A stretch of 64,000 bases of DNA. Origin: an uncultured Cytophagia bacterium. Its GTDB lineage: Bacteria > Zhuqueibacterota > Zhuqueibacteria > Thermofontimicrobiales > Thermofontimicrobiaceae. The stretch lies in the NCBI GenBank assembly GCA_964605145.1, contig CAZSBG010000006.1:28788-92787 (forward strand), in the 5' to 3' direction. The translations under genes and the position numbers were made by a program. Numbering within the stretch: position 1 is the stretch's first letter; each line of letters begins with the position of its first letter. Under the pieces are notes generated by a model. It saw nothing but the letters and a program-made list of their open reading frames with translations. It was not told the DNA's origin and searched no databases. This document shows positions 3,513 to 24,716 of this stretch, piece after piece.

Positions 3513-4715
3513 CTAAATTCCGTTTTCTGAAGCATTTTCCTCAAATTCCAGCTTTTTGATTTCCGCTTCCCGAACCGCATCGAAAATTAGTTGCTGCCAG
3601 TTTTCGATGCTATTTTCAGCCGCCTGAACTTCAGGCAATTTGGCTTTGGTTTCCGGGTTTTTGGGCACAAGGTAGCTGCAGCAGTCATCGTAAGGTTCTA
3701 TTGATGTTGCAAACGTCTCAATTTTTTTGGCTTCAGCAATGATTGTCTCTTTATCCATTCCAATGAGTGGACGCAAAACCGGCAATGTGACGACATCGTT
3801 GATGGCAATAATATTTTCCAGCGTTTGAGATGCCACCTGACCAACACTCTCCCCGGTCACCAGCGCTTTGGCCTTTTCCTTCTTTGCAATTAACGCAGCA
3901 ATGCGAAACATCATTCGACGATACAGCAGAAGACGAAGTTTGGCCGGCGCCTGCATGATAATAGCTTCCTGAATCTTCACCAGTGGCACAAGGTACAGCC
4001 GCACTGAATGCTGGAACCGGGTCAAATGCCCGGCCAGCTTTATTGCATTGTAATATGATGCTTTGTCCGTAAACGGAAAACTGTGAAAATGCACAAAGAT
4101 GTTTCTGCATCCCCGGGTCATCATTCGGAAAGAAGCGACCGGGGAATCGATGCCGGACGAAAGCAAGCTGACAACCCTGCCGCTGCTTCCCACCGGCAGC
4201 CCGCGAATTCCTTCATGACGATCAAAGTAGTAGAAAATCTGTTTATTGAAAATTTCAATATTGCAAGTTAAATCAGGATTCGTCAAATCGACCGGCTTGT
4301 GAAGATCCAGATGAATCTTTGCGCCAACCTCTCTGTTCACATCCACAGAAGTTAACGGATATTGTTTATCCGATCGCCTGGTGTTGATCCGAAACGTTGA
4401 AAAAAAAACATGTTTCAGCTTTTCGAAAATTTGGTGTTTGAGCACATGCACGTCAGAATCACCCGAATACGCAATGGTGAAATAGGCGATTCCAATGACA
4501 TCTTTCAATCGTTTCACTACAGTGTCAATATCTGAATTATTCGGAAAAGAAAGGATAAACCTCCCATAGTCATTCTTCAACTTTTTCCCGGAAATATCAT
4601 TCAGCGCTTTCAGGATATTGTTTTTCAGCTTCGTTTCAAAATATCCGCGATTCCCTTTTTTCAAACCTATTTCACTGTAGTGAATGAGAATATATTTTTT
4701 TTCTTTGTTTTCCAT
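3513..4715 (-). CDS. thiI: tRNA 4-thiouridine(8) synthase ThiI (THUMP plus PP-loop ATP pyrophosphatase)
   Basis: SGGIDSPVA PP-loop motif and a THUMP-like N-terminus. The track start at 4748 is GTG. The in-frame ATG at 4715 gives MENKEKKYILIHYSEIGLKKGNR, which matches canonical ThiI N-termini. Confidence 0.85.
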   Translation of the reverse strand: MENKEKKYILIHYSEIGLKKGNRGYFETKLKNNILKALNDISGKKLKNDYGRFILSFPNNSDIDTVVKRLKDVIGIAYFTIAYSGDSDVHVLKHQIFEKLKHVFFSTFRINTRRSDKQYPLTSVDVNREVGAKIHLDLHKPVDLTNPDLTCNIEIFNKQIFYYFDRHEGIRGLPVGSSGRVVSLLSSGIDSPVASFRMMTRGCRNIFVHFHSFPFTDKASYYNAIKLAGHLTRFQHSVRLYLVPLVKIQEAIIMQAPAKLRLLLYRRMMFRIAALIAKKEKAKALVTGESVGQVASQTLENIIAINDVVTLPVLRPLIGMDKETIIAEAKKIETFATSIEPYDDCCSYLVPKNPETKAKLPEVQAAENSIENWQQLIFDAVREAEIKKLEFEENASENGI

Positions 4716-4956
4716 GAATTCTCTAAGAAATGATTCACTACCTGACACTTTTCAATCTATGTTCGGTAGTTCTGTCATTCCCGCATGTTTTTTGCGGGAA
4801 TCTCCATATATTTTGTCAAATGGATGCCCGACAGAAGCACAGTCTGTATTTCCTTAAAATACAATGTAACTCTACAGGCATTCGGGCATGACAATTCCAT
4901 CAAAAATGCAATATTACAAAAAGTGCCCGGTAGCGAGAGAAATGATACTTTACCAT

Positions 4957-5130: not shown

Positions 5131-8100
5131 TTATTCAATCGTAAAATATTTTGCTTGCGGATGATGCACAACAAAAGCGGATGTCGTTTGTTCAGGCACC
5201 ATCTGATCCTCATTGGTGAGCGTCACCTCGATCTGCTCAGGTTTCAGAATTTCGAATATCTTTCGATTTTCGCTTAGATCCGGACATGCAGGATAGCCAA
5301 AAGAATACCGCGCACCGCGATATTTTTGAACGACAAAATCCTGGATATGTTCACCATCCTCAGCTTCCATGCTCAACTCTTTGCGGATTTGCTTATGCCA
5401 GTACTCAGCCAGTGCTTCAGCAGCCTCTACGCTAAGTCCATGAAACAATAAATATTTTTTGTACTGATTTGTTTCAAATAAATATTTCGTCTCTTCCGAG
5501 GCTCTTTTTCCAACGCTTACCACCTGCAATGCAATGACATCTCTTTTCCCCAAATTCAGCGGAAGGAAGAAGTCTGCAATGCAATGAAATGGCGCTTTCT
5601 TCTGGCGGGGAAACGTGAGTCGCTTCCATTCTTTTTGCGTTTCAGGATGGAAAATGATTACCTGGTTATTTTCGCTATTGCATGGATAGTATCCGTAAAC
5701 AACGTCTGCAACCAACAACTTTTCATTTTTACACCGAGTTTTGAATTCATCCAATGCAGGTCGCGCTTCATGTCTGATGATGTTTTCGAATTCATCGCTC
5801 TTAAGTTTTCCACGGCGAAATCCCCAGCGACCGCGGAACAGCACGGTTTCATTCAAATAAGTGAAAACACGACCCAAATCAACGCCACGTACTATCCGTT
5901 CTCCCCAGAACGGCGGTGATGGAATGTTCACATTTCGGTCTATTTTGGGAGGACCGGACCCGGCAGGTTTTTCCTCTTGCTGTTTCGGCTTTTTTTTTGT
6001 ATTCAGCGGTTTTGCAGAAAACTCATTGACCAACGCTCCTGATTTTATCTTTCCCATGGAGGAAAGTCCGGAAAATGCATCGAGACAGTAAACCACCGGC
6101 TGCTTCAGAATCGGCTGGCAGACATCTTCCACATAACTCTTTGTCAACGCCGCGCCGCCGAGAAGAACAGGCACATTCACACTGCGCCGCTTCATTTCCT
6201 CGAGATTTTCTTTCATCACCATGGTAGATTTCACCAGCAGTCCGCTCATCCCAATGGCATCGGCCTGGACTTTCTGGACTTTATTGAGGATTGTCTCAAT
6301 CTCACATTTTATGCCAAGGTTGTAGACTTTATAACCATTATTCGTCAGTATAATGTCCACCAAATTTTTCCCAATGTCATGCACATCGCCCCGAACAGTA
6401 GCCAGAACAATACTCGTTTTTGCATGATCTTCAGTTTTCTCCATAAAGGGTTGCAGCTTGTCCACAGCGAATTTCATGACTTCTGCGGATTGAAGCACAA
6501 AGGGCAACTGCATTTCCCCGGCGCCAAAAAGATCACCGACTTTTTTCATGGCTGGAATAAGCAGTTGATTGACAATTTCCAGTGGTCCGGTTTTCTCAAG
6601 CGCGAGTTTCAGCAATTTTTCCAGGCCGGTGCTGTTGCCATCCACTACCTGACGCATTATTTTTTGTTCAAGCGACAGTTTTTTCTCTTCAATCCGTTCT
6701 CTTTTTATTCCACCAGTTTTTTTGTCGAAATAATGGATAAAGGTGAGTAAATCATTTTCTGGCCCTCTGTTATAGATCAAATTCAAACACTGTTCTCTAT
6801 CCGCTGCATCAATTTGATAAAGTGGTATGATTTTTTTAACATTGACAATGGCCAAATCCAAACCGGCCTTAACCGCTTCAGATAAAAAGACTGAATTGAG
6901 CACCTCACGCGTATGGGGATTAAGCCCAAAAGAAACATTGCTGACGCCAAGAATTGTAAACACGCCGTCCAGCTCGTTCTTGATGCGCTTAATGCCTTCC
7001 AGGGTGTTCGCTGCAGAATCCGACAAACTTTCATCGCCACTGGCCAGGGTGAACGTTAATGCATCAAAGATGATATCCTTGGATCTGAGTCCATGCCTGT
7101 TCACTGCGATTTCATACAATCGTTTGGCAATTTCTACTTTTGTATCTACTTCACGCGCCATGCCGTTTTCATCGATGGTTAAGGCGATGAGGGCTGCGCC
7201 GTATCGCTTCGCCAATTGACAAATTTTATCCACCCGATCCTCGCCGTCCTCCAGATTGATGGAATTGATAACGCAACGACCACCGGCCAATTGCAGCGCT
7301 TTTTCAATCACGTGCGCATCTGTGGAGTCGATAAACAACGGTAAATCCACCTGCTTGACAATTCTGGATACCGCTTCTTTCATGTCGGCAGACTCATTTC
7401 GGCCTGTGAACGCGACACATAAATCCAGACCATGAGCACCGGTTTTCATCTGTTGTCGCGCGACAGAAACGACGCCATCCCAATCATTGTTCAATACATA
7501 TTCACGAAATTTCTTACTGCCATTGGTATTGGTGCGCTCTCCGACAAAAAAGGGCCCGGGGTCCTGCTTCAGAATTCTTTCACTGAACAATGAGGCGATA
7601 GATGGAAATTTTTCCGGCTCTCTTTGCGGTCTGGTTAAAGTAGGAATTTTTTCTGCCATTGCTTTGATAAAATCAGGATTTGTACCGCAACAACCACCAA
7701 CGAACTGAACTCCCTCTTCTGTTATGAAACCCGACATGATGTTAACAAATTCATCGACCGGTAGCGTATAGACCAGAGCACCATCAATGTTTTCCGGCAA
7801 TCCTGCATTTGGCTGACAAATGACAGGGCCATCGAATTGCTGACTGATTCTCTTTATATAAGGATGCATCTGTTCCGGTCCTGTGGCACAATTGATCCCG
7901 AGAACATCGATGTCAAATGGCTCCAGGGCTGCCATAACCGCCCCAATTTCACTGCCGAGAAGCAACGTCCCGGTGGTTTCGACCGTCACGGAGACGATAA
8001 CCGGAAGTTTCACATCCTGTGCTTTCATTTCATCGAATATTGCAAGAAGCGCCGTTTTAATTTGAAGTAAATCCTGGCATGTTTCCATAATAAACAGGTC

Positions 8101-8547
8101 AACGTGACCCTCAATTAATCCCTTTGCCTGAAGGTTATAGGAGCGATACATGGTATCGAAATCAGTCTGGCCCAGAGTTATCAGTTTTGTACCCGGGCCT
8201 ACAGACCCGGCAACGATTTTTTTTTTGTCTGCAGAATATTTATTAACAGCCCGGCGAGCAATGTCAGCAGCAACTTTGTTGATTTCAACCACCCGATCTT
8301 GCAATCCATACTCGGCGAGTACAATTACATTAGCGCCAAACGTGTTGGTTTCAACCACATCAGCGCCTACCTCCAAATATTTTTCATGGATTTTTTGAAT
8401 TTTTTCAGGCGCGGTCAAATTCAATACTTCGCTGCATCCGATTTTGCCATCCCACTCTACCTGTGTTGGATTCATGGCTTGAATTTGGGTGCCCATGGCA
8501 CCATCGAAAAGCACGATTCTTTCTCCGAACAATTCCCGGATTCGCAT
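5131..8547 (-). CDS. metH: Cobalamin-dependent methionine synthase MetH
   Basis: Its four modules are homocysteine S-methyltransferase, pterin-binding, B12-binding (DxHxxG region) and an AdoMet-activation domain. The track start at 8550 is GTG; the adjacent ATG at 8547 is preferred, with a GAGG RBS. Confidence 0.9.
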   Translation of the reverse strand: MRIRELFGERIVLFDGAMGTQIQAMNPTQVEWDGKIGCSEVLNLTAPEKIQKIHEKYLEVGADVVETNTFGANVIVLAEYGLQDRVVEINKVAADIARRAVNKYSADKKKIVAGSVGPGTKLITLGQTDFDTMYRSYNLQAKGLIEGHVDLFIMETCQDLLQIKTALLAIFDEMKAQDVKLPVIVSVTVETTGTLLLGSEIGAVMAALEPFDIDVLGINCATGPEQMHPYIKRISQQFDGPVICQPNAGLPENIDGALVYTLPVDEFVNIMSGFITEEGVQFVGGCCGTNPDFIKAMAEKIPTLTRPQREPEKFPSIASLFSERILKQDPGPFFVGERTNTNGSKKFREYVLNNDWDGVVSVARQQMKTGAHGLDLCVAFTGRNESADMKEAVSRIVKQVDLPLFIDSTDAHVIEKALQLAGGRCVINSINLEDGEDRVDKICQLAKRYGAALIALTIDENGMAREVDTKVEIAKRLYEIAVNRHGLRSKDIIFDALTFTLASGDESLSDSAANTLEGIKRIKNELDGVFTILGVSNVSFGLNPHTREVLNSVFLSEAVKAGLDLAIVNVKKIIPLYQIDAADREQCLNLIYNRGPENDLLTFIHYFDKKTGGIKRERIEEKKLSLEQKIMRQVVDGNSTGLEKLLKLALEKTGPLEIVNQLLIPAMKKVGDLFGAGEMQLPFVLQSAEVMKFAVDKLQPFMEKTEDHAKTSIVLATVRGDVHDIGKNLVDIILTNNGYKVYNLGIKCEIETILNKVQKVQADAIGMSGLLVKSTMVMKENLEEMKRRSVNVPVLLGGAALTKSYVEDVCQPILKQPVVYCLDAFSGLSSMGKIKSGALVNEFSAKPLNTKKKPKQQEEKPAGSGPPKIDRNVNIPSPPFWGERIVRGVDLGRVFTYLNETVLFRGRWGFRRGKLKSDEFENIIRHEARPALDEFKTRCKNEKLLVADVVYGYYPCNSENNQVIIFHPETQKEWKRLTFPRQKKAPFHCIADFFLPLNLGKRDVIALQVVSVGKRASEETKYLFETNQYKKYLLFHGLSVEAAEALAEYWHKQIRKELSMEAEDGEHIQDFVVQKYRGARYSFGYPACPDLSENRKIFEILKPEQIEVTLTNEDQMVPEQTTSAFVVHHPQAKYFTIE

Positions 8548-8785
8548 CACATCCTCACTTTTATTCCATTAAATTTTCACACTTCATCACCTAAATAAAT
8601 GTTATTTTATCAATTCAAAAAAGATCAACAAATAGTGTTTGGTCTTCATCGCTCTGCTACCAGCATTAAGTTGAATCAGCTTTAGCAGATTAAAGCTGAA
8701 CCGAAATATCTCTGAACCTCTGGCCTTTCAGAGATCATTCTGCAAGAGACTGAATAGTTTTCATCTTCAGCGATCTGCGCATTAA

Positions 8786-8852: not shown

Positions 8853-9566
8853 TTAATTCTGTTTAAATGTCTCTCTCTGAAAAAACTCAACCCTCTTTTT
8901 CTTGGAATTTAAGTTCAACTGTTTTAAATATCTAACCACCTGAAACCAGCTTAACTTTAAATTGCCGTACATCGGTGAATTTAACTCGCGCATAATTTTT
9001 ATGCTGCCATTCTCGGGATTTTCAATGACCAACTGTTTTATTTTTTCTTCGACGCTTTTATCCCCGGCATCCGACGAAATCATTTTATTTAAATACGCTT
9101 CTCTCTCGCTTGCATCGTCTTCGGAGTGAGAAGAATGACTCGTTTCTTCTTTATAACTTTCAGTGTCTCGTCTCACCTGACTGACACTTCGTTGTTCACC
9201 ACGCGGTCTGGATTTATCGAAATCAGCCACCGCATCTTCGATCGAATCGAAGGCTTTTAAAATATAATGAAATTCCAACAATTCAAATACTTCATACACG
9301 TCAGGAATCATGCCGATAAGCTTGAGGTCGCCACCTTTCTCCCGAATACCTTTAATCTCACTGATAAAAATACCCCAACCTGCGCTGCTTATGTAATCAA
9401 CATTGGACAAATCGATAATAATGTTGTAATTGTTGGCGTCTAACAAGGTTTCAAGAGAGTGTTCTAATTCTGCGGAAGTAGTCGTGTCAATATACCCACC
9501 CACCTTTATCACAGAAATATTGTTGTCAACACCTGTTTGTTTAACAGACAATTGAATTCCTTCCAT
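8853..9566 (-). CDS. STAS-domain protein (anti-sigma-factor antagonist-like) with a ~130-aa C-terminal extension
   Basis: The N-terminal ~110 aa (IKVGGYIDTTTSAELEHSLETLL ... DLSNVDYISSAGWGIFI) is a SpoIIAA/RsbV-type STAS fold. The C-terminal part is Ser/Glu-rich and then has a predicted helical domain. The track start is TTG at 9611; the ATG at 9566 preceded by GGAG is preferred. Confidence 0.75.
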   Translation of the reverse strand: MEGIQLSVKQTGVDNNISVIKVGGYIDTTTSAELEHSLETLLDANNYNIIIDLSNVDYISSAGWGIFISEIKGIREKGGDLKLIGMIPDVYEVFELLEFHYILKAFDSIEDAVADFDKSRPRGEQRSVSQVRRDTESYKEETSHSSHSEDDASEREAYLNKMISSDAGDKSVEEKIKQLVIENPENGSIKIMRELNSPMYGNLKLSWFQVVRYLKQLNLNSKKKRVEFFQRETFKQN

Positions 9567-9699
9567 CGAATACTCCAAGATGTATGATTCGCAAAATTTT
9601 CTTAAATTCAAATATAATAGAAAAACAAGTAAAAGTCAACAAAAAAATATGATTTACATCTTTCGTTTTTTTAATATACTATCTCATTTCTCTAAAAAT

Positions 9700-12600
9700 T
9701 TACTTACGATTTTTTAGTAATTCTTCAGCTTTGATAATATGATTCGAAATATCGTCTCTGCCGGGATCTAATTCGAGTAATTTTTTCCATTCCCCTATAG
9801 CTTCCTTTAACTTACCGTTATTCGCATAAATAACTCCTGTATTTTCATAAGCATCCGTATCTTTTGGATCCAGTTCTTTGACGCGAAGGTAAGCTGAAAC
9901 AGCCTTTTCGTATTGGTGGGAACGATAATAAGAGTTTCCCAGAATACTGAATGCTTCTTTGAACTCCGGATAAATTTTTGTAACTTGGAGGAATTGCTCA
10001 ACAGCTTGCTCGTAATTATGCTCATTATAAAATTTTAAACCCAGAATAAGGTGTTTCTCGCGAAGTGGGTCCTGTTTCGACAGGAATGAATTTGAATCTT
10101 CAGAATCATTTGTAACCTGGCTATTGGAAAAATTCATAAAATTATTCTCTTCGGATGCTCGTTTCTTTTCAGGATTTTTTGGCTGACCTTCGAGCACAAG
10201 CTCAGCTTCATCGTCCTGCAATTCGCCTTTTTCGAAAAATGAGATGTCCGATTCGATTTCATCCAATAAATCATTGAATGAAAATTCATCGCCCATAATT
10301 TCATCGTCCTCTAAAATATCCTGTTCATTAACTTCCGACACGTCCTGGACATCATCCAATAACTCCATGGTTTCATCTTGCGATTGATTCTCATCCTCTT
10401 CTTCGGAATCTTGAATTTCTTGTTCATCACTCAAGTCCAGTTTTCCATTATCGCCATTTTTATCCGTATCGGTTTGAAAAATTTCATTTTTAAAACTCGT
10501 TTCATCAACCAGTGTTTCGAAACCCAGATCGTCTGAGTTGTCTTCTTCAGAATCTTCGAGTAATTCATCTAAATTTATTGATGGTTTTGGTCTTTCCTGT
10601 TCTTCTTTCGGTTGATCAATTTCGTCAGGCTCGTCTGAAATTTCTTCTTTTGAATCTTCAAAGTCTGACGTTTCATTTAAATCCAAATCGTTTTCTTCAT
10701 CGTGTTCCCCCTGTTCATCCCAAATATCTTTGAAGCTGAAATCGTGCTCCAAGCCGAGATCATCAACGTCCTCAGCTTCTTCCGAAACGTCATCATCATC
10801 AAAATCAATATCGTCTTCCAGGTCAGTTGACTCTTCCTCTTCAAAAAAGATATCTTCCTCTGATTTTTCATCCGATGAATCGAAATCATCTTCACTTTCC
10901 GCAGTTTCTGATTCATCCTCGCGATGAATACTTGATTCATGCAAACCACCCTCTTCTTCATCGTCTTCTTCTTCATCCCGTTCTTTTTTGAGCAGGTCCT
11001 CAATTGGCATGGTCATCAGGCTTTCGAGGTAGAAGTTATCATCCGGATCCTTTGGCATCCTGACTTGCTTTGGCTTCCTGGGTTTATTTTTCTTTTCAAC
11101 GGGTCGTTCATCATCTTCTTCGTGACCGAGTTCTTTTTTCGATTCCTCCGGCGGCGGTGGTAAGGGAGGTTCGTCGTAGCTTCGGTCAAGAATAATCTTC
11201 CCGTCCAATGTTAACATCGGGGTACCCGGGGGTTTCATTCTCTTTTTCTTGCCTGACCGGGCGATATAAGCTTCCCGCAACTGCCGTGTGTTTAATCGAC
11301 TTCGAACGAGTTCATCATAGATTCGGCTTTCATTGATTTCCGTGTAGGTGTATTTTTCTGTGTTGAGTTCTTCGCTAATTCTCTTGGCACCAAATTCCGG
11401 ATGTTTCTTTATAATGTCATATATCTTCGTTTTTTCTTCGATACTCAGATGTTTCGCCTCGACGGCAATGGTTTCGTCAATGGAATAGGCGTCGATCCCT
11501 TCTTCTTCGAATATTTTTTTGTATTTATTATAGTATGCATAGGTTGTGATGCCTGATTCCTCACACGCTTCGCGGATATTTTTTCCGGCTAATATGGCGT
11601 TATGCGCTTTCTGCGCGCGATGCAATTCAATTTTTTCCGGCGAACTTTTTTCTTTGATGGCAACAACAGTGATATCGTCATTTTGGTCAAAGCCTTCTGT
11701 AAAAGAATGTATTTCATCTTTCAATTTATCGATAAATGCCTTGGCACGTAACGTTCCATGCTTACGTATCACATCCTGCAATCGCTCTTCACTGAACAAT
11801 TCACGGCGACCATTCATGGCCTCGGTGATACCATCGGTGTAAATCAATAGGATATCATCTTCGGCTAACTGAATTGTGTCCGATTCGATCGAACGTTTGA
11901 ACAATTCAGGATCCGGCAGTGAAATGCCCACCGGGAATCCCCTGGGATTTAAATAATACGTTTTCTTTGAACCCCGTCTGTAAAGAATCATTGGATTGTG
12001 CCCGGCGCTGGCGTAATTAATTCGTCGCTTTTTGGAATCAATGATGACATAAAACAGGGTCACAAACATTCCCTTTTTCATATCATTGACGACAAACTCG
12101 TTCACACGCGCCAACACCTCTGAAGCTGAACGAATGGAGCGCGCTTCGGTTCTCAGGGCAGTCCGAATCATTGTCATGATAAGTGAACCGGGAACGCCTT
12201 TTCCTGACACATCAGCAACGACAATCCCCAAAGTATCTTTATCCACTTCAACAAAATCGAAATAATCACCGCCAACTTGTTTGGCCGCTTCATAATGCGA
12301 TGCTATCTCGTATCCCTCCAGAACCGGGGTTTCTGCCGGAAGCAATGTCTGCTGTATATCCTGGGCCAGTTGCATTTCCTTTTGAATCCGCTCTTGTTCA
12401 GCGAGATTTTTCTGGGATTGTCGAAATTTATCCGTTATATCGCTAAAGGCTTTGGCAATCTCGCCCACTTCGTCGCCGCTATCGAAATCAATTTCGTCTT
12501 TGACATCTCCGCCATGACCCAGATCACTCACCCAGGTTGAGAGCTTGCGAAATGGATTCATTATTAAATAGATGAGCAATGTCACGCCGAGATAGCTCAG

Positions 12601-13593
12601 CGCCAAAATCATAAATGCTGTCAGAAGATCTCTCGTCCGAACCGAAGCCACCTTGCTGCTGACGACATCTTTTTGAAATTCCAGGTAGACGGTTCCAACC
12701 CTTACCCGAGAAGCATTGTATATATCGCTTACAAAGCTGTAAACTTCCGTTCCACTGTTGTCGTCTTTATATTTGTAGAGATTGGGACGTGGTTCATCGC
12801 GATCTGAGGGAATAACAAATTCCTGCCCCAGCAATGTTTCATCAGTTGAATTAATGATATAATTGGTCGTATCAGTGACTGACAGACGATAAAAATCGTC
12901 TTTTGACTCCTGAAATTCCTTAACTTTGAGCGCCACATAAAATATTTTCAAATCTTCATCTTCATTATCGATGATACTGCGGGCAATACTTTTGCCGGTA
13001 GGTCGCTCGATGGCAACAAATTCATCCAGCACTTCGTTCCCATGCTTGAAAAAATAATAGAAATATCCGATCGTAATAGCAACGAATAATATTAGTGCGG
13101 AAATGATTGAGTAGCGCATTTTCAAACTGACAGATATGGTGGGAGTCTGAATCACTTTTTTCTTGCGAAAAGAACTGACCCTGTATTTCGTCAGCCTGAG
13201 TTCATTGCCTTCTTCGGTATGATGGTATTCAATTTCATCCAGCAGCTTGCGCATGATAAAAATTCCCAGACCACCCTTTTTACCGATATCAACATACCGC
13301 TTCAAATCCGGGTCTGCAACTCGGGACGGATCAAAATATTTTCCCTGGTCGATAAGCACAACACTCATGCTGTTTTTCTTGACGATGACGCGCATTGTAA
13401 TCATGCCCTCCAGATCGCGGTAGGCATGCTTAATGATATTCGTCGCGGCCTCGTCAATGCACAGCTTGAATGCATTTACCACTGTATCCGGGAAGCTATG
13501 TTTGCGCCCTGCTTTGGTGACAAAATTCCGCAGTTCGCCCAGATAATCAATGTGAGCGGGAACTTTTATTTCTTCTTTAATCGCTGCTTTCAA
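9700..13593 (-). CDS. 1,297-aa multidomain transmembrane signalling protein. Domains, N to C: RsbW/SpoIIAB-like HATPase kinase, TM, periplasmic sensor, TM, HAMP, SpoIIE/PP2C phosphatase, HTH-like segment, ~370-aa polyacidic disordered region, TPR repeats.
   Basis: The N-terminus (FKLCIDEAATNIIKHAY ... GGLGIFIMRKL) matches anti-sigma-factor serine-kinase HATPase_c. There are two TM helices (aa ~160-182 and ~326-348). The PP2C motifs are YEIASHYEAAKQVGGDYFDF, VVADVSGKGVPGSLIM and YTDGITEA. The C-terminal TPRs are LILGLKFYNEHNYEQAVEQF.... Confidence 0.75.
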   Translation of the reverse strand: MKAAIKEEIKVPAHIDYLGELRNFVTKAGRKHSFPDTVVNAFKLCIDEAATNIIKHAYRDLEGMITMRVIVKKNSMSVVLIDQGKYFDPSRVADPDLKRYVDIGKKGGLGIFIMRKLLDEIEYHHTEEGNELRLTKYRVSSFRKKKVIQTPTISVSLKMRYSIISALILFVAITIGYFYYFFKHGNEVLDEFVAIERPTGKSIARSIIDNEDEDLKIFYVALKVKEFQESKDDFYRLSVTDTTNYIINSTDETLLGQEFVIPSDRDEPRPNLYKYKDDNSGTEVYSFVSDIYNASRVRVGTVYLEFQKDVVSSKVASVRTRDLLTAFMILALSYLGVTLLIYLIMNPFRKLSTWVSDLGHGGDVKDEIDFDSGDEVGEIAKAFSDITDKFRQSQKNLAEQERIQKEMQLAQDIQQTLLPAETPVLEGYEIASHYEAAKQVGGDYFDFVEVDKDTLGIVVADVSGKGVPGSLIMTMIRTALRTEARSIRSASEVLARVNEFVVNDMKKGMFVTLFYVIIDSKKRRINYASAGHNPMILYRRGSKKTYYLNPRGFPVGISLPDPELFKRSIESDTIQLAEDDILLIYTDGITEAMNGRRELFSEERLQDVIRKHGTLRAKAFIDKLKDEIHSFTEGFDQNDDITVVAIKEKSSPEKIELHRAQKAHNAILAGKNIREACEESGITTYAYYNKYKKIFEEEGIDAYSIDETIAVEAKHLSIEEKTKIYDIIKKHPEFGAKRISEELNTEKYTYTEINESRIYDELVRSRLNTRQLREAYIARSGKKKRMKPPGTPMLTLDGKIILDRSYDEPPLPPPPEESKKELGHEEDDERPVEKKNKPRKPKQVRMPKDPDDNFYLESLMTMPIEDLLKKERDEEEDDEEEGGLHESSIHREDESETAESEDDFDSSDEKSEEDIFFEEEESTDLEDDIDFDDDDVSEEAEDVDDLGLEHDFSFKDIWDEQGEHDEENDLDLNETSDFEDSKEEISDEPDEIDQPKEEQERPKPSINLDELLEDSEEDNSDDLGFETLVDETSFKNEIFQTDTDKNGDNGKLDLSDEQEIQDSEEEDENQSQDETMELLDDVQDVSEVNEQDILEDDEIMGDEFSFNDLLDEIESDISFFEKGELQDDEAELVLEGQPKNPEKKRASEENNFMNFSNSQVTNDSEDSNSFLSKQDPLREKHLILGLKFYNEHNYEQAVEQFLQVTKIYPEFKEAFSILGNSYYRSHQYEKAVSAYLRVKELDPKDTDAYENTGVIYANNGKLKEAIGEWKKLLELDPGRDDISNHIIKAEELLKNRK
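10083..11193 (-). repeat. Polyacidic low-complexity disordered region (D/E-rich, ~370 aa) within the multidomain signalling protein
   Basis: The coding strand is dominated by GAA/GAT/GAG codons. The Ser-rich track ORF on the opposite strand at 10730-10927 is an antisense artefact of this region. Confidence 0.8.
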
Positions 13594-13625
13594 ATTTAAT
13601 TTATCCTCTCTTCCGATAATCCTCT

Positions 13626-15548
13626 CTATTTATTCCGCTGCCGTTGTCTCTCTTTTGCCTGATCGATGGCGTCCAATATTTCCTGGTTATAAGGTTGAAT
13701 TTCTAACAGCTCTTCCCAGGTTTTTATTGCGTCATTATATTTTTCAGCTCTATAGAGATTAATTCCTCGATTATACCGCTTGGTCATTTCCGGGGTCATT
13801 CGCTGTTTTTTCGCATTGGCGCGACGGTCTGCATCTTTATAGAATTTCTTTAGCTGCTCATTATTGGGCCGATGCTTAAGCGCCTCTTCGAATGAATTCA
13901 TCGCATTGATATAATCCTTTGTGATATAATACCGATATCCCTGCTGAAATAACTCATCGAATTGCATTTGCTGCTTGTATCGATTGCTGCGCGTTTCAAT
14001 TGCGTTAATTTGCTTTTGATCCGGATTCAACATACGCACATTGTTCAAAACACTGATGGCTTCCAGGTAGCGGCCCTTCCTGGCAAAATTATCCGCTCGG
14101 TTAATCAGCGAGAGTATTTTCTTTTCATAATCTGTATTTGCTTTGGCAATCCACTCTTTTGCCAGTACATTATTAGGATCGCGATCCAACATTTTCTGCC
14201 ATTCAGCAATGGCTTTTTCGTATTCATCGACTTCGTAGTGCGCCAATCCTGCATCAAATTGCCTGTCCAGGAAAATTTTCAATTCTTCGCGTCGTTTTTC
14301 TTCCTCATTACGGGTTCTGATTTCATCATAGGCTTGCTTAATTTTATCATCGCGTTTCTGAATTGTTGCTTCCGCCAATTTACGCGCTTCTTCGATCACC
14401 GTTGAATTTGGAATTTCATTCTCATAGCTGGTAATGAAATTGAATTCTCTCAACGCCCGGGCATAATCTTCAATTTCAAAATATTGTTTTCCGCGTTCCA
14501 GACTCTCCGCGATTTTTTCGTCCCGTTCCCAAATTCGCTGCTGTTCCACTTTCCGTTGAATTTCCTGCAGCCGCCGCTCTTCTGCTATTTTCACAAGCTC
14601 CTTTTTCGATTTTCCAAATGTCATGCTCAAAGAAATTCGGTGGCTTGCATCGAATTCATTTTCTGAAAATTTTCCATACGAGTAATCTATCTGAAACTTG
14701 TTAACCACTGCGCCAGCGCCAAAGGCAAGCTGATTGTTATTCAGCCCAACGCGCAGCATGGCGAAATTATTGAACACATATTCAGTGCCGGTGTGATATT
14801 TGAACGGCTCATATTCACTTTGCTCAAAATCCATAAAAATCGTGAACTGATTTCCCCATTCATTGGTTAAAATGGGCTTGGCAAATCCCATTCGGAAATT
14901 CAGCGGGTGGACATCTGTTTCGGAAATTAACTTCAGTCTCGGTCCGACAACATTTTGCAGCGCCACTCCAACAGAAAGCCCGCTCAAAAGTGCATTGGTA
15001 AAATTGGGTCGATATAAAAATCCAAGATCGAGTCCAACGCCTGTATCCGATATTTTAAAAATGCTTTGATGCTCAACCTTCAGGTTCACGCCGACACTGA
15101 TATTCCACGGCAACTGTTTTCCGTAGGAAACCAAAAACTGTTGATTGGAGAGTGAATTATCGTCCCCATAATAAACATTATCATTATCTCTTTCAGGAAT
15201 TCCACCGGTTCCAATGCTGATGGCGGCCACACCGAACGAGCCCAACGCCACTGTGGGATGAGCATAACCCACATAAAAATATTGAGTATCCATGACGAGA
15301 TTGGTATAAAACAAGCTCACGTTTTTTCTTTGAATATAATCCAGTCCGGCGGGATTCCAATAAACTGCGGTTGCATCGAACGGCATCGCAACGTAGGCAT
15401 TGCCCAGCGCCAGAGCCCTGGCGCCGACCCCAAGATTGAAATTGCTTTGCGTCCCTGCAAAACCATCATCTCCTTTAGCTATACCGGCAAACATACCAAA
15501 TGCCAGAAAAAAACTGAAAATCCCTATGAATAAATTTGATTTTCGCAT
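13626..15548 (-). CDS. FadL/PorV-like outer-membrane beta-barrel (N-terminal ~310 aa) fused to a ~330-aa TPR/coiled-coil C-terminal domain
   Basis: Signal peptide, then GVGARALALGNAYVAMPFDATAVYWNPAGL, the FadL/PorV-family N-terminal motif. The first half has alternating beta-strand-like segments. The C-terminal half is TPR-like (YEKAIAEWQKMLDRDPNN, YNDAIKTWEELLEIQPYN) and rich in charged coiled-coil. It starts 17 nt after the giant T9SS cargo gene. Confidence 0.65.
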   Translation of the reverse strand: MRKSNLFIGIFSFFLAFGMFAGIAKGDDGFAGTQSNFNLGVGARALALGNAYVAMPFDATAVYWNPAGLDYIQRKNVSLFYTNLVMDTQYFYVGYAHPTVALGSFGVAAISIGTGGIPERDNDNVYYGDDNSLSNQQFLVSYGKQLPWNISVGVNLKVEHQSIFKISDTGVGLDLGFLYRPNFTNALLSGLSVGVALQNVVGPRLKLISETDVHPLNFRMGFAKPILTNEWGNQFTIFMDFEQSEYEPFKYHTGTEYVFNNFAMLRVGLNNNQLAFGAGAVVNKFQIDYSYGKFSENEFDASHRISLSMTFGKSKKELVKIAEERRLQEIQRKVEQQRIWERDEKIAESLERGKQYFEIEDYARALREFNFITSYENEIPNSTVIEEARKLAEATIQKRDDKIKQAYDEIRTRNEEEKRREELKIFLDRQFDAGLAHYEVDEYEKAIAEWQKMLDRDPNNVLAKEWIAKANTDYEKKILSLINRADNFARKGRYLEAISVLNNVRMLNPDQKQINAIETRSNRYKQQMQFDELFQQGYRYYITKDYINAMNSFEEALKHRPNNEQLKKFYKDADRRANAKKQRMTPEMTKRYNRGINLYRAEKYNDAIKTWEELLEIQPYNQEILDAIDQAKERQRQRNK

Positions 15549-15565
15549 AGTACAAATCCTGTTTG

Positions 15566-18500
15566 CTATTTTATCACTGCAATTTTTATGAGTGCTGATT
15601 TTCCATTACCAGTGGATATTCTGGCAACGTAGACGCCGTTTAATACCTTATATCCCTGACCATTTCTGCCATCCCAAATCACATCCGAATCGTGCAAACC
15701 TTTTCGACCCTGAGGCTCGAGTTCAGAATAGGTGCGTGACCAAACCAGCTCGCCGATCAACGTATATATTTGTATTTTCACTTCAGTGTCTTCATCCAGG
15801 TAATAGACGAAATTGGTCACCGGCCTCCCGATTTCTCCGAAAGGATTGGGATAATTGCTGAACGCCTTGTCAAAATCCGCTTCAATTATTACCGATGGCT
15901 CAGATTCAAAATTAAGCGCTTCCAATGTTTGCCCATTGACATTCTTTAATTTCGGCGTTTGCCCGGATTCCTCATCATAAAGATAAAGAGAATTGACCGA
16001 ATCAATCGCTATTTGAAAATCACTAATTTCGGCTGTGGTTGCAATATCCACTTTGAACTGAACCTGGTTTTCAATTTCAGGTTTGAGCGTATCTATTTGT
16101 GAAAATAGAATTTCAATTGGATTTGACGTTGGAATTGCTGTTATCTGTCCAAAAACTTCATTGTTTTGCTGATTATTCACAACACAGACGCGTGAAATAA
16201 CCTGGGCCGGATTTGTAACAGGCACGCCAAATCGATCCTTCAATTTAATTTTAACGCCTGTAAACAGTATATTGTTCGAAAACGCATCGCCGGATGCCAG
16301 CAATTCCAGTCCCATCATGGACACGCCGGTATCCCCCCGGGCAATCGTGTTTTTTGTTGTTGTGGGCAACATACTCACAGTGACGCTTTTTTCTTCAGCA
16401 GAAATTGGAATCGAAACATTTTTCAGCAAGATTGCTTCTGCTGCAACAGGTAGATTTGAGTTTTCATCTTCCGGCCAACTCACGAGGTCAATCGCGATAT
16501 TGCTTGGATCTCTCTCTGATGTCGGTGCGGTGATTGTCCAGAACAGTGAATCATTATACGCAGCCGTCTGGGTTAAATCCTGCGCGATGGAATATCCCTG
16601 GCCTTCCGGCAAAGTTAACGTTGCATTGAAATTTCCCAAAATGTTTGCATCGCCGGTTTTTGAAAGATAAGCGCTCACTACAAAGTTTTGATTCGTTGAA
16701 ACGATACCATCCAGAGCGCTTGCCGGAGATAATATTTTACCTTTCAATTGAATTTCTGCCCGGCGAACCACGTCCACTTCCAGCGAATCCGATGTTCTGG
16801 TGAATGATATTCGACTGTTGGCATCCTGCGCTGTTAATTTCATCCAGATGTGCTGATCGTCGATTGTGCCTCCCGGCGTGGTGATTGTCCAATTCACTGT
16901 TCCCTGGTCGCCAACTCCCACCGGTAATTTTGGATAGGATTCCGGCGTTGTAAATCCTCCTTCCAATTGCAGTTGCACGGAAGGCGCGCCGGTACAGTTA
17001 AACCAGCTCACATCAGCTTCAATTTGAAAGGATTGATGAGTTGACAGAATTTTATCAATCGCCCCGACCGGTGATACAATCCGGAGATTCTCGATCCAGG
17101 CATTTGCCGATTGTTGCGTCTGAACATAGTAATATTTTGATCGGGTCGGCACCATTGCTTTTTCATTTGTATTCACATCTTTGGGTATCGTATTGATGGT
17201 GACAACAATTGGTGCTTTCAGGGTTTCGACTTCAGGAGCCAGCAATCGCCAGGTTACAGGAATATCCGGCTGGAACGGTTTCACTGTATCGTCCTCCGTG
17301 GTGACGCCGGTTGCTCCAAAATCGATGCTCAAATACGCCGCGCCTTCAAGAGGTGCATCCCCAGAATTAATGACAATCGCACTCAAATCGAATTCCTGTC
17401 CCATGGAAAGTGTGCTGTCGGTGGAAGGCCAGGAAATCCATGCCCGATCGATCAACAACGTCGCCCGATTTTCAACTACGACAGAAATACTGTCAGATGC
17501 CGTGACCTCATCGCCTCCAACGGTTCCTGTGACCAGAACTTTTATCCACTTCTCATTGGAATGTGCGTTTTCAGGAGCGATAAGTTCCCAACCGGCCACG
17601 TCTGCGACGTTCGCTTTGATTGAATCTGTGCCAGGCGCAAATCTGTATCCTGCCGGGAGGTTCAATCTGGCGTTTGCGCTGGTGATGTTTTCCGACTTCA
17701 TAATATCTACCTGAACCCAAAAATTCTGAAGTGTGGATAAAGTATCATCCAGCGCCCCTTCAGGCGAACTTATTTCGAATGATTCCACGGCAAGCTCCAG
17801 AGGCACCGTTCTCACCACAAGTGAATCAAACGGGTCCGTATTTTCTATCAAAGCAAATGAGCCGGTATTTTCATCCAAAGGCGGTTTTGAAATCTTCGCG
17901 ACAATCGTATCGTTACTGGACGCATATGAAGGCGGCACGACCTGCCATTCCACTGTTTCATTAATTTCAAACGATGTGGTATCGGATGATTTTTGTTGTT
18001 GGTCGACCACGACAAAATAATTCTGCGGCATGAATAAGGCCAGTTCGCCGCTGGCGTCCACATCTGCTGTTCCGAGATTTTCAATTTGAACCTGAAATGG
18101 CGCGACCTGGCCAATCGAGTAAATCGAATGTTCCTTATTGATGGAAATTTTCAACAGGGCCGGATCGTGCACACGAACCAACGCTGTGGAGTCAGATGCT
18201 CCACCGATTGTAGCCGGAAGGCCGCTGCCGTGTGAAATAGCTGATTCAATTCGCACTGTAAATTTCACCTGTTCAGTGGCCACGGACTGTGCCGCAACAT
18301 TGAAAGTAGCAATGGCCTCTCCTGAAGGTAAAATATTATCGATATTCACAGAGGGTATGATGTACCCAGGCGCTGTTAAACTCACCAGCACATTATCAAC
18401 TTGTTCCCCCCCGGTATTACGGATTTTTGATCTCACGGAAAAAGCCTGGTTTGTGTTCACCTGGCCGATATCGTACTGGTTAATATTTCGACACACCGGT

Positions 18501-21500
18501 TCCGTAAAATCGATGAAAACATCTGCAGACGGACGAACATAAACCGCGCCTGAGTCTGCCACCTGAAAAGTTGTATTTGTATTTAAATAGGTTCCACTCA
18601 AATTTAGTTTTATTTTTGCCATTCCGCCCAAAACACCGGTACTTGTCACGCGGTAAATCAGCGTATCGGCTCCATTCCAGGACAGCGTTAAATTTGGATT
18701 ATTTTCAAATTCGAGTGGCGCCACGATGGTGTAATCATCCTGCTCATTCCCGGTAATTATGATGGATACATCCTCTCTGTTTGGCGGATCCAATTTTATG
18801 AATCCCGCTCCGCTATCTTCAACAGCCACGATAATTTGCCATTCGAAAGGACTCAGCGCTCTGACCGTATCCTGCGATGGCGAAATGGAAACAATTTTGA
18901 ACTTGCCTGGTCGCTGTACAGTGACTGTATCCGTCGAATCGACTGAGGGGCTGATAAAAATTTTATCAGGCTCCGTCGGTGTATTTTCTGCAAATGCGGT
19001 ATCAATTGAGGCGGAGAATACTTCATCCCAAATCCAGTCCGATGACGCCTGTACATTGAACTTTAGCGTATCCGTGCTCGCGCCTTGCACAATTTCAAGG
19101 GAATCCACCGGATTCAAAATAGTTGATGTACTATCACTAATTAACGACATTTTGATATTTTGGGCCGCGTCTTCTCCCTGGTTCTGGACAAGAACGGCTA
19201 TCTGGAAAACCTGATTATTATCCACATACGGCGCATTGGGCGCAATATTCACAGTTTTCAGAATTCGAATATCGGCCGGCATTTCTACCTTAATTGTTGT
19301 GCTATCTTCAGCGGTTTTTTCTTCCTGACTGTTTATCTCCTCGGCAAAAACCGATACATGAATCGTTCGACTGCCTGCAACAGAACCGGTTGTGTCCACT
19401 GAAAAAATCAGGCTGTCCGTAGCGCCGGAAGGCAGCTTGAAAAAGCCGAGTGTTTCAAAACTTATTGGGAAACTGACCACATAATTTGTGTCATCCCCAA
19501 AACTCACAAAGTCATTCAGGTGTGTCGAATCGATTGCAATATCTCCGCCACCGTTATTAGTTAGCGAAATAATAGTCTGCCAGGGCATTGATTGATTTAC
19601 TGTTACTTCTGGTTGGGATGTTCGAATATAATCTATAACAAGCTCACCCGGCGCCTGCACCGTTACCCCGGTCACTTTGCTTTTGATGATTTGACCGCTG
19701 ATCATATCATTCAAATAAACTGTTCCTCCAATGGTAACTGAACCGATTGTTGTGCCGGTTTCATCAACCGTTACTATCAGCGTATCGGTCAATCCGGCAT
19801 CGAGCAAACTATCACCACTTGTCTTGAATGTGTCAGGATATAACATCTGGTACTCGCTCGAAATATCTGAACCGCCATAGGTAAAATTTACCCGAGCGCT
19901 ATCCAGCCGCAACGGCGCTCCCCCATTATTGCGAATTACCATGTTCAGAAACCAGTTCTCAGCCTGACCGCTGGTGACCGTTCTCTGACTGGGATAAAAA
20001 TCGACTATTTCCAAATCAGATGCTTGTTTGACATACCATTGATCGGTTGTGTCTGCGTTCAAATCCGAATAGGGTAGTTCTGAGTTTTCATCGCTTGCAT
20101 AGACTTTTCCATCGATTGTTATGCTGTCGAGTGTGGCATTTGTGCCTACCGTTACGGTAAAGAACAGACTATCCAGGCTGTGCCCTGCGATTGAGGTTGG
20201 ATTCGTCGGATAAGGCACGAGCGCATATTCGTCACTCACATCTAAAATTGGTGGCGTTAAATTTGAATAAGAGAATCTCACTGAATCCACAATCGCCGTT
20301 GCATCCCCATTATTCTGAATCCTTGCGGAGATAATTGTATTTGTCCCCTGGGTAACGGTATCTGCATCAGCTTTCACTCTCAAAAATTGTAGTGAAGGAG
20401 GCGTTTGAACCAGCCATTTATCCGTTTCATTGGCTGCCACATCGCTTACAGAACTGCCATTTACCCTGCAATTAATGAAACCATCGATCTGGATTGAATC
20501 TGTCAATGCGTTTGACTTCACATTCACTAAAAAACTTAGGGTCTTATTTCCATTTCCTGGTAACACTGAAATCGTATCATTACGACTCACAATATAATCG
20601 CCTGAACGATTTGAATAACCGGGTGCAGGGCCGGTAAATTCTAATCCAGCGCCATCAGAAATTATCGTGGCATTTGAAGCGCCATGATTTTTCACGGCCA
20701 TCAGAACCGTTATATTTTGTTGATTGCGGCTCACTTTATCAAAATCTGAACTAACAGACAGAATCTCCAACCCGGAAATAATTATGCTGGTATCCCCAAC
20801 TGCACTTCCCCTGACAACACTATTCGCCTGAACGAGAGCCGTTCCACCTGTTACACCTGCATTGACAACGAATGAAATTTGGCCTGCTGTGTCTGATACA
20901 ACCTGTGTGCCTCCGATACCCGGATTTTCATCAGGTGTTGTAATGGTACCCAATGTTGTTGACACGGTGAAATATTCGCCGCTGGAAATTGGATTGTTAT
21001 CGCTGTCACGAATTGTATCCGACGTAACCACAGAAAACGAATCAGGATCGGCCGGTATTATTTCAGGAACAGGATGAAGTACAATTTCGCCTATCGGTAC
21101 GCCGGGATTTACAGTAATGAGTCCAGTCGTATCATTTTCTGCTGTAGCATGCACGGCCAGAATTTTTCCGTGCGCCGGCGCTGTTGATGGCGAGAAATCA
21201 AGCGTTGAACCGGTCCACAATACAGCCGGCGCTAATGTACTGTCACTGGACCAATCTACAACCGCCGGCCCGAGATAAACATTTCCTTCGTCATAAGCAG
21301 CCGCATACAGTGTCAATGTTTCATCGGCTGAAATGGTACGCGTCGTCACCACATTGCCGGCGCCATTATCTGCATCGCGAATGAGCACGTGGTGAATGGC
21401 TCCCACAGTAAATGTACCTGTCGAATCGGCTCCCACACTCACACTGTCAGCATAAATTCGTCCACTCGTATAGGGCGTAGCCGGACTGAACATTGTGCTC

Positions 21501-23656: not shown

Positions 23657-23704
23657 TTGATGCTCTTCCAAAGTTTTTGTTCGTCAATTCTTTTTCATCT
23701 GTCT

Positions 23705-23889: not shown

Positions 23890-24399
23890 TTATTCTTTTT
23901 CGGGCAGAATTCTGTGTATTTTTTCCTGCTTTAAAACTGATCTTTCATCTTCTATTATTTCCACTGTTATTCTATAGTTATCGGCAGGTTTTAAAGGATT
24001 TTTTACAATCGCGAACTTGACATCCACTTTTTCATTCGGTTTTATTTCTCTTCCAAGCCCGGATCTTTTCAGCGTCAATATCTGGTCATTGACCTCAACG
24101 TCAAATCCACCATTCATTGTTGTTGAGCTGGCTATCATCAATTCTGATAAATCAAACTCCGCTGGAAAAGTGACATTCAATTTTGCCGTCGGCGAAATCG
24201 GTTTTTCGATTCTAAATTCAATTTTGTAAATCGATTTTGCACTTGATTCAGGATGTCTGGCAATCACATTGACAGTATCGGCAGGTGCAGCGCTCGCCAC
24301 ACTGGTGAAAAAATAAATTATTGTAATAAAAAATAGTATTGGGATGAATCTGGTCTTCCCTGTCTCAAACCTATGATATGTTTCAGAAAGATACATCAT
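23890..24399 (-). CDS. Small secreted protein (169 aa), paralogous to the N-terminal domain of the giant surface protein
   Basis: Signal peptide, then SIYKIEFRIE...KLNVTFPAEFDLSEL...NGGFDVEVND...RSGLGREI...VKNPLKPADNYRITVEII. This aligns with the giant protein's AIYTFTFTT...KIKLIFPSGFDLTGV...NGGVSIQYVN...RDGTGTKV...GNNPDADNYSVKIIT. There is no T9SS CTD. Confidence 0.7.
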   Translation of the reverse strand: MMYLSETYHRFETGKTRFIPILFFITIIYFFTSVASAAPADTVNVIARHPESSAKSIYKIEFRIEKPISPTAKLNVTFPAEFDLSELMIASSTTMNGGFDVEVNDQILTLKRSGLGREIKPNEKVDVKFAIVKNPLKPADNYRITVEIIEDERSVLKQEKIHRILPEKE

Positions 24400-24716
24400 T
24401 GTATATTCTCCATGTTAGATTGAAAAACATGATTCGCTCTAAAAAACTTGGTTATATAATTATATTGGATTATTTCCAGTGCGTGGGTGATTTTCATCAA
24501 AAAATTAAATAATACTATCCAAAAAAATTTTCTAAGTTCAGAAAAAATATAAAAAACATATTATTTAAATTTCTGAATTGCAAAAATTATACCGATGTTC
24601 ATAAAAGGTACTCATTCAATGAGGAAATATAAGAAGGTGAAAATGCAGACTTATTCCATCATACATTCATGTGATTTGCTTGCCATGAAAAGGAATAAGT
24701 CCTGCAATTTAATAAA

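Follow-up and report, generated by a model that had tools for sequence, protein, structure and literature searches.

Single-chain proteins that combine an RsbW-type kinase with a PP2C phosphatase and act on a STAS substrate are represented by SypE/SypA of Vibrio fischeri, HsbR/HsbA of Pseudomonas and Rv1364c of Mycobacterium tuberculosis. The domain layout of SypE has been described (PMC3610818; PMC10120452). Here, we analyzed a sensor gene of this general type on a stretch of 64,000 nucleotides (nt) of contig CAZSBG010000006.1, called the window below, from an uncultured bacterium assigned to the Zhuqueibacterota. The gene (9700..13593, minus strand, as are all features of the sensor given below) is an open reading frame (ORF) of 1297 amino acids (aa) with a TTG start, Pfam domains and more than 120 colinear full-length orthologues. 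The subject of this study is a long linker of the encoded protein, which is extremely rich in aspartate and glutamate (D+E) and lies between the catalytic core and a C-terminal tetratricopeptide repeat (TPR) module. To our knowledge, there is no well-studied long polyanionic disordered region in any bacterial signalling enzyme.

As assigned by Pfam, NCBIfam and hydropathy, the sensor is composed, in this order, of an RsbW-like kinase, a transmembrane (TM) segment, a periplasmic domain, a second TM segment, a HAMP domain, the PP2C phosphatase, a double helix-turn-helix (HTH), the acidic linker and the TPR module. The kinase domain (HATPase_c_2, RsbW/SpoIIAB-type serine kinase, aa 12-136, 13186..13560) matched PF13581 with E=5.6e-27 and, below threshold, the NCBIfam model RsbW (1.2e-19). 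The SpoIIE/PP2C serine phosphatase (aa 452-647, 11653..12240) matched PF07228 with E=8.5e-51. For the comparisons within the family, 119 full-length orthologues were used for linker statistics, 121 sequences for motif counts and 118 for PP2C invariance; several Asp residues of the phosphatase are invariant in the latter set. Two Kyte-Doolittle peaks define TM1 (aa 158-183) and TM2 (aa 323-346), which enclose the extracytoplasmic sensor domain (aa 184-322; 12556..13122 for all three), the most variable folded part of the sensor in the family alignment. The HAMP domain (aa 339-383, 12445..12579) was detected by PF00672 with E=1.6e-5 and 25.6 bits at a cut-off of 25. Given two TM passes and K/R-rich stretches on the cytoplasmic sides of TM1 and TM2, everything from HAMP onward, including the acidic tract, is placed in the cytoplasm.

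As in the SypE system, the gene of the STAS partner adjoins the sensor gene and the conserved Ser motif is kept. Unlike SypE, the sensor takes its input through the TM-periplasmic-TM-HAMP arrangement instead of a receiver, and no Response_reg match was found in the sensor. The double HTH, the ~370-aa polyacidic linker and the TPR module are absent from the SypE layout (PMC3610818; PMC10120452), and the STAS partner carries its own winged HTH (wHTH), which also differs from the SypE system. As the receiver domain is missing, the sensor has to be called SypE-like in function and not a SypE orthologue. Judged by its domains, it is a single-chain kinase and phosphatase partner switch acting on the STAS partner.

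Composition, predicted disorder and conserved motifs of the linker

The linker comprises aa 803-1175 (10069..11187), with a D+E content of 39%, 8% K+R, a net charge of -116, a fraction of charged residues of 0.48 and a net charge per residue of -0.31. An initial annotation of the window had placed a ~370-aa polyacidic disordered region at 10083-11193, corresponding to aa 801-1171 of the sensor, between the phosphatase side and TPRs. This region is real. Glutamate accounts for 21.4% and aspartate for 18.1% of its residues, and the sum of 39.5% compares to 15.5% D+E in the remainder of the sensor; about 147 carboxylates are present in one chain. The strings quoted from the tract at that time (PPLPPPP, KKNKPRKPKQVRMPK, EEDDEEE, DDDDVSEEAEDVDD) were all found in it, and the TPRs announced behind it were found at aa 1176-1297. 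The extent of the region was borne out, with the reservation that its strongly acidic core is narrower (aa 851-1140, nt 10174-11043), with net charges of -5 to -18 in 30-residue windows. The flanks of the linker are near neutral, Pro-rich and basic at aa 803-850 and N/S-rich at aa 1141-1175. In the first flank the proline patch PPLPPPP (aa 809-815, nt 11149-11169) and the basic patch KKNKPRKPKQVRMPK (aa 834-848, nt 11050-11094; both within 11050..11169) are lineage-specific and poorly conserved, with 0-11 K+R in the 30 aa before the first conserved motif across orthologues.

Comparing the 53 long reading frames of the window, the best 100-aa stretch of the tract contains 54 D+E, followed by 27 for the next-best frame and a median of 18. 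As the other long frames show ordinary D+E contents, the acidity is a property of the tract and not of the proteome. An acidic proteome of the halophile type was rejected for this reason, since the rest of the sensor and all other long frames of the window are ordinary in D+E. Bacterial proteins seldom contain disordered regions that are long and strongly polyanionic. The rarity claimed for such linkers in bacterial signalling is plausible in view of the clear outlier position of the tract within the window, and a review on ESKAPE pathogens, in which most disordered sequences are weakly poly-ionic only, agrees with it (PMC11326607).

On its N-terminal side the linker adjoins a transposase-type double HTH (aa 659-775) followed by the conserved KPPGTPMLTLDGKIIL (to aa 802; 11188..11619 for both), which matched the NCBIfam model for the IS481 N-terminus with E=3e-6. 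Sub-threshold matches to HTH_28, HTH_32 and HTH_21 were obtained for the sensor, and in its relative P0221 the cut-offs for HTH_23 and HTH_28 were passed. The double HTH and KPPGTPMLTLDGKIIL show 68-89% column identity across the family, with KPPGTPMLTLDGKIIL near-invariant, and were modelled with high confidence (see below). A sequence search of the PDB with the HTH module yielded a chance match only (E=0.17). This conserved module between phosphatase and linker had been missed before. On its C-terminal side the linker is followed by the TPR module, which consists of three repeats and a capping helix (aa 1176-1297, 9703..10068; TPR_2 3.7e-16, TPR_1 1e-12). Foldseek matched it to CTPR3, SGT and RPAP3 with target-normalised TM-scores (TMt) of 0.8-0.9, in alignments of the sensor model that cover only ~115-120 TPR columns. 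An EEVD-binding carboxylate clamp of the Hop/SGT/RPAP3 type was considered and rejected. In place of the canonical groove residues K/N/N/K/R on the A helices of TPR1-3, L1182/L1186, N1220 and E1250/V1254 are found at the sequence positions counted relative to the helix-A glycines; the clamp positions are those we take to hold for Hop TPR1, so that this comparison, made on sequence only, is a weak test.

Several predictors agree that the linker is intrinsically disordered, as had been claimed. AlphaFold2 was run on two constructs, aa 395-1297 and aa 840-1297, with a 118-sequence alignment. In the model of aa 395-1297 the predicted local distance difference test score (pLDDT) was 75-97 for PP2C and HTH (85-97 for the double HTH with KPPGTPMLTLDGKIIL) and 95-98 for the TPR module, while ~330 residues within aa 800-1173 were below 50; in the other model ~210 residues were below this value. 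In the charge-hydropathy analysis the linker falls on the disordered side, with a mean hydropathy of 0.33 compared to a boundary of 0.525 at its net charge per residue. A Pfam search with the acidic segment alone at E<=5 gave no match. Apart from short helices at aa 852-861, aa 864-868 and aa 1106-1120 and one near aa 955, neither model shows a structured element in the linker, with the exception of an additional short helix at aa 1035-1038 in the aa 395-1297 model.

The alignment revealed four conserved islands with near-invariant residues in the linker, M1 to M4, about 60-90 residues apart, which the initial annotation had not recognized. M1 (DDNFYLESLMTMPIEDLLKKER, aa 851-872, 10978..11043) contains P863 in 110/121, L868 in 118/121 and E865 in 108/121 sequences, and is predicted to form helices (pLDDT 54-80). 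In M2 (LEHDFSFKDIWDE, aa 948-960, 10714..10752) S953 is found in 108/121 and F954 in 117/121, with a short helix at pLDDT ~50-54. M3 (LGFETLVDETSFKNEIF, aa 1023-1039, 10477..10527) shows F1025 in 85/121 and acidic residues at 1030 and 1031 in 85-86%. M4 (FSFNDLLDEIESDISFFE, aa 1104-1121, 10231..10284), with F1106 in 101/121, is a predicted helix (pLDDT 66-76) of amphipathic character with an S/T/D N-cap, located ~50-80 aa before the TPR module. Its hydrophobic positions are i, i+3, i+4, i+7, i+11 and i+14, and its helical hydrophobic moment of 0.43 compares to 0.21+-0.10 for shuffled sequences, of which 2.5% reach the observed value. M2 and M4 have a core in common (hydrophobic-S-F-x-D-hydrophobic-hydrophobic-acidic), in which the S/T/D first position and the acidic residue three positions later resemble a helix N-cap. 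A linker contains the motif pattern 3.2 times, a shuffled linker 0.37 times. The spacing is conserved, with interquartile ranges of 59-71 aa from HTH to M1, 81-94 from M1 to M2, 57-75 from M2 to M3, 47-86 from M3 to M4 and 60-77 from M4 to TPR. In the construct of linker and TPR module (aa 840-1297) the helices of M1 and M4 reached pLDDT values of 70-80, above those in the longer construct; this difference is suggestive of a docking of the helices onto the TPR module, without being decisive.

The negative charge is found mainly in the three spacers that separate the motifs. Spacer S1 (aa 873-947, 10753..10977) has a net charge of -41, S2 (aa 961-1022, 10528..10713) of -25 and S3 (aa 1040-1103, 10285..10476) of -26. 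S1 and S2 are negative in 119/119 orthologues and S3 in 117/119, with median net charges per residue of -0.27, -0.30 and -0.26, respectively. For the linker ends adjoining the folded domains the corresponding medians are -0.04 and -0.09.

Conservation of the linker and its place in the wider family

In the database search, full-length colinear orthologues of the sensor numbered more than 120, with lengths of 1208-1475 aa; their sources, where named, are candidate division KSB1, Candidatus Zhuqueibacterota and Calditrichota. Among the named genomes, the closest (75% identity) is a metagenome-assembled genome (MAG) of the Zhuqueibacterota, a phylum for which a description is available (PMC11683472). 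The comparison of linker lengths that had been proposed for orthologues turned out in favor of a conserved feature, as the linker is present in 119/119 with 286-542 aa (median 365). Its D+E content ranges from 17 to 40% (median 31%) and its net charge from -28 to -177 (median -77). Linker D+E was negatively correlated with the content of Gly, Ala, Arg and Pro (GARP) of the folded domains (Spearman rho -0.62) and positively with their FYMINK content (+0.65), and the P+A+G content of the linker followed folded-domain GARP with a rho of +0.79; these correlations were not corrected for phylogeny. The least acidic relatives are GC-rich and possess P/A/E-rich linkers with 17-20% D+E. As linker acidity tracks overall composition, the extreme D/E content found here is in part a compositional flavor of an AT-leaning genome. 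The conserved property is the negative charge, the sign of which never flips, and not a D/E content of 40% as such.

Compared to the 94%-identical relative P0001, the linker is 88% identical and the folded domains 94-99%, with 0 indels in the linker. For an 80%-identical relative the values are 60% for the linker and 80-98% for the folded domains, with 10 indel events in the linker versus 0-1 per folded domain. The ratio of non-synonymous to synonymous substitution rates (dN/dS), determined with the 94% relative, was 0.39 for the spacers, 0.14 for the motifs and 0.03-0.11 for the folded domains, which points to a relaxed yet purifying selection on the spacers. An unusually clear evolutionary signature emerges: charge and motif spacing are kept over three phylum-level lineages, and the sequence between the motifs changes freely.

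On the DNA level, the tract shows 62% purines versus 55% in the rest of the gene. Tandem Repeats Finder reported only a TCT-rich patch of 23-34 nt (score 32-47) in it. Runs of identical codons do not exceed 3 and those of D/E codons 9, and the usage of GAA (80%) and GAT (72%) equals that of the gene outside the tract (76% and 75%). The length variation expected from repetitive GAA/GAT codons is contradicted by the missing microsatellite, codon runs of at most 3, a codon usage like that of the rest of the gene and the absence of linker indels in the comparison with the 94% relative. Over deeper divergence linker indels build up quickly, as in any disordered region. An assembly error in low-complexity DNA, also raised at first, does not fit a continuous linker reading frame colinear with more than 100 orthologues, nor the 94%-identical protein of 1296 aa, which has no linker indel and was recovered on three contigs originating from other sequencing runs, of which two were read. 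A K-rich ORF of 108 aa overlapping the tract in another frame (10677-11003, minus strand) was rejected as a gene and explained as a by-product of purine-rich GAA/GAT coding.

Representative sequences were searched exhaustively with HTH plus M1, resulting in 143 clusters at 50% identity, 41 of them with E<1e-30. This search superseded a word-indexed homologue search with the same query, which had returned 6 proteins only. With only 143 clusters found, the family is small. Wider relatives ending in TPRs always contain a long D/E-rich linker of 166-975 aa, and the longest ones carry two TPR modules. Whatever the length of the linker, M1 is located ~55-85 aa past the HTH and an M4-like motif lies ~150-190 aa ahead of the C-terminus; many TPR-bearing relatives have lost M2 and M3. 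P0210 and P0252 (797-819 aa) consist of the HATPase_c_2-(Cache)-HAMP-SpoIIE-HTH core and end right past the HTH, with neither linker nor TPR, and P0200 (1511 aa) has three STAS domains as a tail in place of the linker. Among the other distant relatives that share the core (the set comprises P0184, P0188, P0200, P0210, P0221 and P0252), some have a short basic tail of the type F-x-W-E-x-Y...KKxxKK. It appears that the C-terminal tail is an accessory position at which modules can be swapped. As the linker is found in every TPR-bearing relative examined and both parts are missing in core-only relatives, linker and TPR module behave as one accessory unit. Cores without a tail or with a STAS tail provide a natural comparison set for what the charged tether adds to a partner switch.

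Proposed role of the linker and alternatives

The tract is confirmed and better defined than before. As to its function, we infer a cytoplasmic, disordered polyanionic tether and motif scaffold that joins the kinase-phosphatase-HTH core to the TPR docking module, a reading held with confidence and doubt in equal measure. It is built on the observed composition, predicted disorder, topology, conserved presence, length range and charge of the linker, its motif spacing, the selection acting on it and its accessory nature. From polyelectrolyte behavior, spacers with a charge of about -0.3 per residue would keep the chain expanded and prevent its collapse. The chain would further be repelled from the anionic membrane and the nucleoid, and the TPR module would be given a capture radius of tens of nanometres from the membrane-anchored core. 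M1 keeps its place close to the HTH and M4 close to the TPR module, and the motifs are probably docking sites that fold on binding. Candidate partners would be the TPR module (in cis or in trans), the STAS-wHTH substrate or another partner. The four defined motifs are open to experiment. Of the three roles suggested by the initial annotation, the entropic spacer between phosphatase and TPRs fits best, because the linker always comes with the TPR module and both are absent together.

We are fully aware of several points that speak against the tether and scaffold. The binding partners named for M1-M4 and for the TPR module are candidates. The extreme D/E content is partly compositional, as judged from the correlation of -0.62 with GARP, uncorrected for phylogeny. 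The helical hydrophobic moment is not significant for M1-M3. Finally, with 166-975 aa in the wider family the linker is not a precise ruler. All alternatives were nevertheless ranked below the tether.

The same motifs could serve multivalent clustering. Bound to the TPRs of neighboring molecules in trans, they would assemble the sensors into membrane clusters or condensate-like hubs, with the spacers tuning solubility and fluidity, like the acidic disordered region in PopZ; bacterial disordered scaffolds of the clustering type have been reviewed (PMC11326607). Several similar and regularly spaced motifs, the core common to M2 and M4, a TPR of the peptide-binding type on the same chain and the presence of two TPR modules in distant relatives are in line with such a scaffold. 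However, the strong like-charge repulsion arising from the net charge of -116 would oppose self-association in the absence of counter-ions or basic partners, and the loss of M2 and M3 in many TPR-bearing relatives also speaks against it. We consider clustering unlikely.

Autoinhibition, or mimicry of nucleic acids, is a doubtful explanation as well. Here, the acidic chain would fold back onto a basic surface and compete with DNA or the STAS protein; this surface would be provided by the HTH together with its KKKRMK tail, by the basic patch or by the basic kinase domain. The acidic tail of HMGB1 and the acidic C-terminus of Hfq are models for this mode of action. It gains from the conserved transposase-type double HTH directly upstream, from a kinase domain that is always net positive (+1 to +10) and from the basic patch ahead of the acidic tract in this lineage. 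However, the net charge of the HTH module across orthologues has a median of only +2 (range -5 to +8), its DNA binding is putative, the basic patch is not conserved, and ~300 acidic residues far exceed what is needed to mask one small domain. The tail also does not co-occur with the HTH, since P0210 and P0252 possess core and HTH without an acidic tail and P0200 has STAS domains instead. Given the near-neutral HTH and the variable basic patch, the mimic of DNA or polyphosphate suggested at first is not supported.

In a third explanation the linker would be a physicochemical sensor, the chain size of which follows ionic strength, Mg2+, polyamines or pH and reports to the kinase/phosphatase switch. 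PP2C enzymes need Mn2+ or Mg2+. The negative charge of S1-S3 is kept in 117-119/119 orthologues, and a fraction of charged residues of 0.48 with -0.31 net charge per residue belongs to the most salt-sensitive class in the Das-Pappu classification (cited in PMC11326607). Nevertheless, the proposal is purely inferential, a dedicated periplasmic sensor with HAMP is already present in the protein, and the acidity varies two-fold among orthologues, so that we assign it a small likelihood.

The linker might also be a neutral filler, for which any long hydrophilic and non-aggregating sequence suffices and D/E simply reflects AT- and purine-rich coding. The dependence of linker D+E and P/A/G on folded-domain composition described above (-0.62, +0.65 and +0.79), the fast sequence change and the many indels would be expected in this case. 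However, the linker is net negative in every orthologue, specifically in S1-S3, the dN/dS of the spacers is 0.39 and not ~1, four motifs and their spacing are conserved, and the linker was never lost while the TPR module was present. A mere filler is therefore quite improbable. A sink or store for cations is hardly credible despite ~147 carboxylates per chain, since a two-pass membrane sensor is presumably present in few copies, probably too few for buffering cations at millimolar levels, and D+E falls to 17-20% in P/A-rich relatives, and the hypervariable contingency tract and the assembly artefact, no more credible, are essentially refuted by the missing microsatellite, 0 indels versus the 94% relative and a frame colinear with more than 100 orthologues.

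Gene cassette and comparison with known systems

The sensor gene is followed by the gene for the STAS anti-sigma-antagonist (8853..9566, minus strand; PF01740 7.7e-18), in which a variable linker of ~55 aa connects the STAS domain to the C-terminal wHTH. Three orthologues begin at the position of the ATG at 9566 (MEGIQ...), which is therefore the probable start rather than the TTG at 9611. The motif DYISSAGWG with the likely phosphorylatable Ser is invariant in 4 orthologues. The second HTH of the sensor has a homologue in the wHTH (~60 aa), which matched sensor aa 704-778 in BLASTP with E=3e-6, and these paralogous modules of sensor and partner may pair or bind a common target. The pairing of sensor and STAS gene is syntenic in the three phylum-level lineages.

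Both genes belong to a conserved four-gene cassette (8853-23671, minus strand) encoding a giant surface protein, an outer-membrane barrel of the PorV/PorQ family, the sensor and the STAS protein. The giant surface protein has 2701 aa and a faint CARDB match here; its counterpart in a KSB1 genome is 5110 aa long and matches Big_1. The barrel (13626-15548, PorV_fam 1.9e-39) is fused to C-terminal TPRs. The order of the cassette is identical in genomes of Zhuqueibacterota, KSB1 and Calditrichota, with different genes downstream. Upstream of the giant protein (23890-25847, minus strand), an ORF of 169 aa without Pfam match and a TPR-rich protein of 376 aa (TPR_11, 7e-32) were found, which may share the operon of the cassette. 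Past the cassette, an ORF of 1139 aa (5131-8550, minus strand) is syntenic with a methionine synthase (MetH) gene, and genes for ThiI and an M28 peptidase lie within 3513-4748 (minus strand) and 2021-3436 (plus strand). All three are ordinary housekeeping genes, and their synteny is shared by the Zhuqueibacterota MAG GCA_049322915.1, so that the window is placed in or near this phylum.

The cassette flanks examined contain no sigma factor gene, and the output of the switch may for this reason be the export or assembly of a surface protein rather than transcription; possibly, it controls the adjacent giant surface protein and the PorV-like outer-membrane protein. A more far-reaching proposal would be a salt- and charge-responsive multivalent scaffold, made up of the spacers, the regularly spaced amphipathic motifs and the terminal TPR, that clusters the sensors, or a gauge for ionic strength, Mg2+ or polyamines, coupling the state of the cell to the switch over the surface protein and PorV-like cassette in KSB1, Zhuqueibacterota and Calditrichota. 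We regard this as a speculative possibility of low probability. For these uncultured organisms, the immediate value of the findings lies in a well-defined hypothesis and an annotation rather than a mechanism.

A literature search for the sensor family retrieved general reviews and the description of the phylum Zhuqueibacterota only, and neither a Pfam or NCBIfam model nor a paper describing the linker was found. The linker was compared with disordered regions of better studied proteins. HMGB1, the C-terminal domain of Hfq and region 1.1 of sigma70 possess acidic autoinhibitory tails near nucleic-acid-binding domains. The linker has in common with these tails that an acidic disordered segment is located beside a domain of the nucleic-acid-binding type, the HTH. 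It differs from them by the near-neutral HTH, by a tract ~10x or more longer and by the existence of core relatives without it. In the disordered region of RNase E, short conserved segments termed microdomains act as docking sites; for the linker motifs docking is proposed only. Like the linker, the C-terminal scaffold of RNase E is a long, fast-evolving disordered region in which the charge pattern is kept over the sequence (PMC11326607). However, RNase E is an RNA-binding polyampholyte in which acidic and basic blocks alternate, whereas the linker is almost purely polyanionic (K+R 8%) and part of a membrane signalling enzyme. The C-terminal linker of FtsZ with its C-terminal peptide and the acidic disordered region of PopZ likewise tether a core to a terminal binding module, and length, flexibility and charge matter more than sequence in both; in PopZ the net negative charge is conserved. 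These linkers comprise ~50-100 aa in well-studied species and up to a few hundred aa elsewhere, and they are not known to contain internal conserved motifs. In comparison, the sensor linker with its 286-542 aa contains four motifs and shows a much higher charge density.

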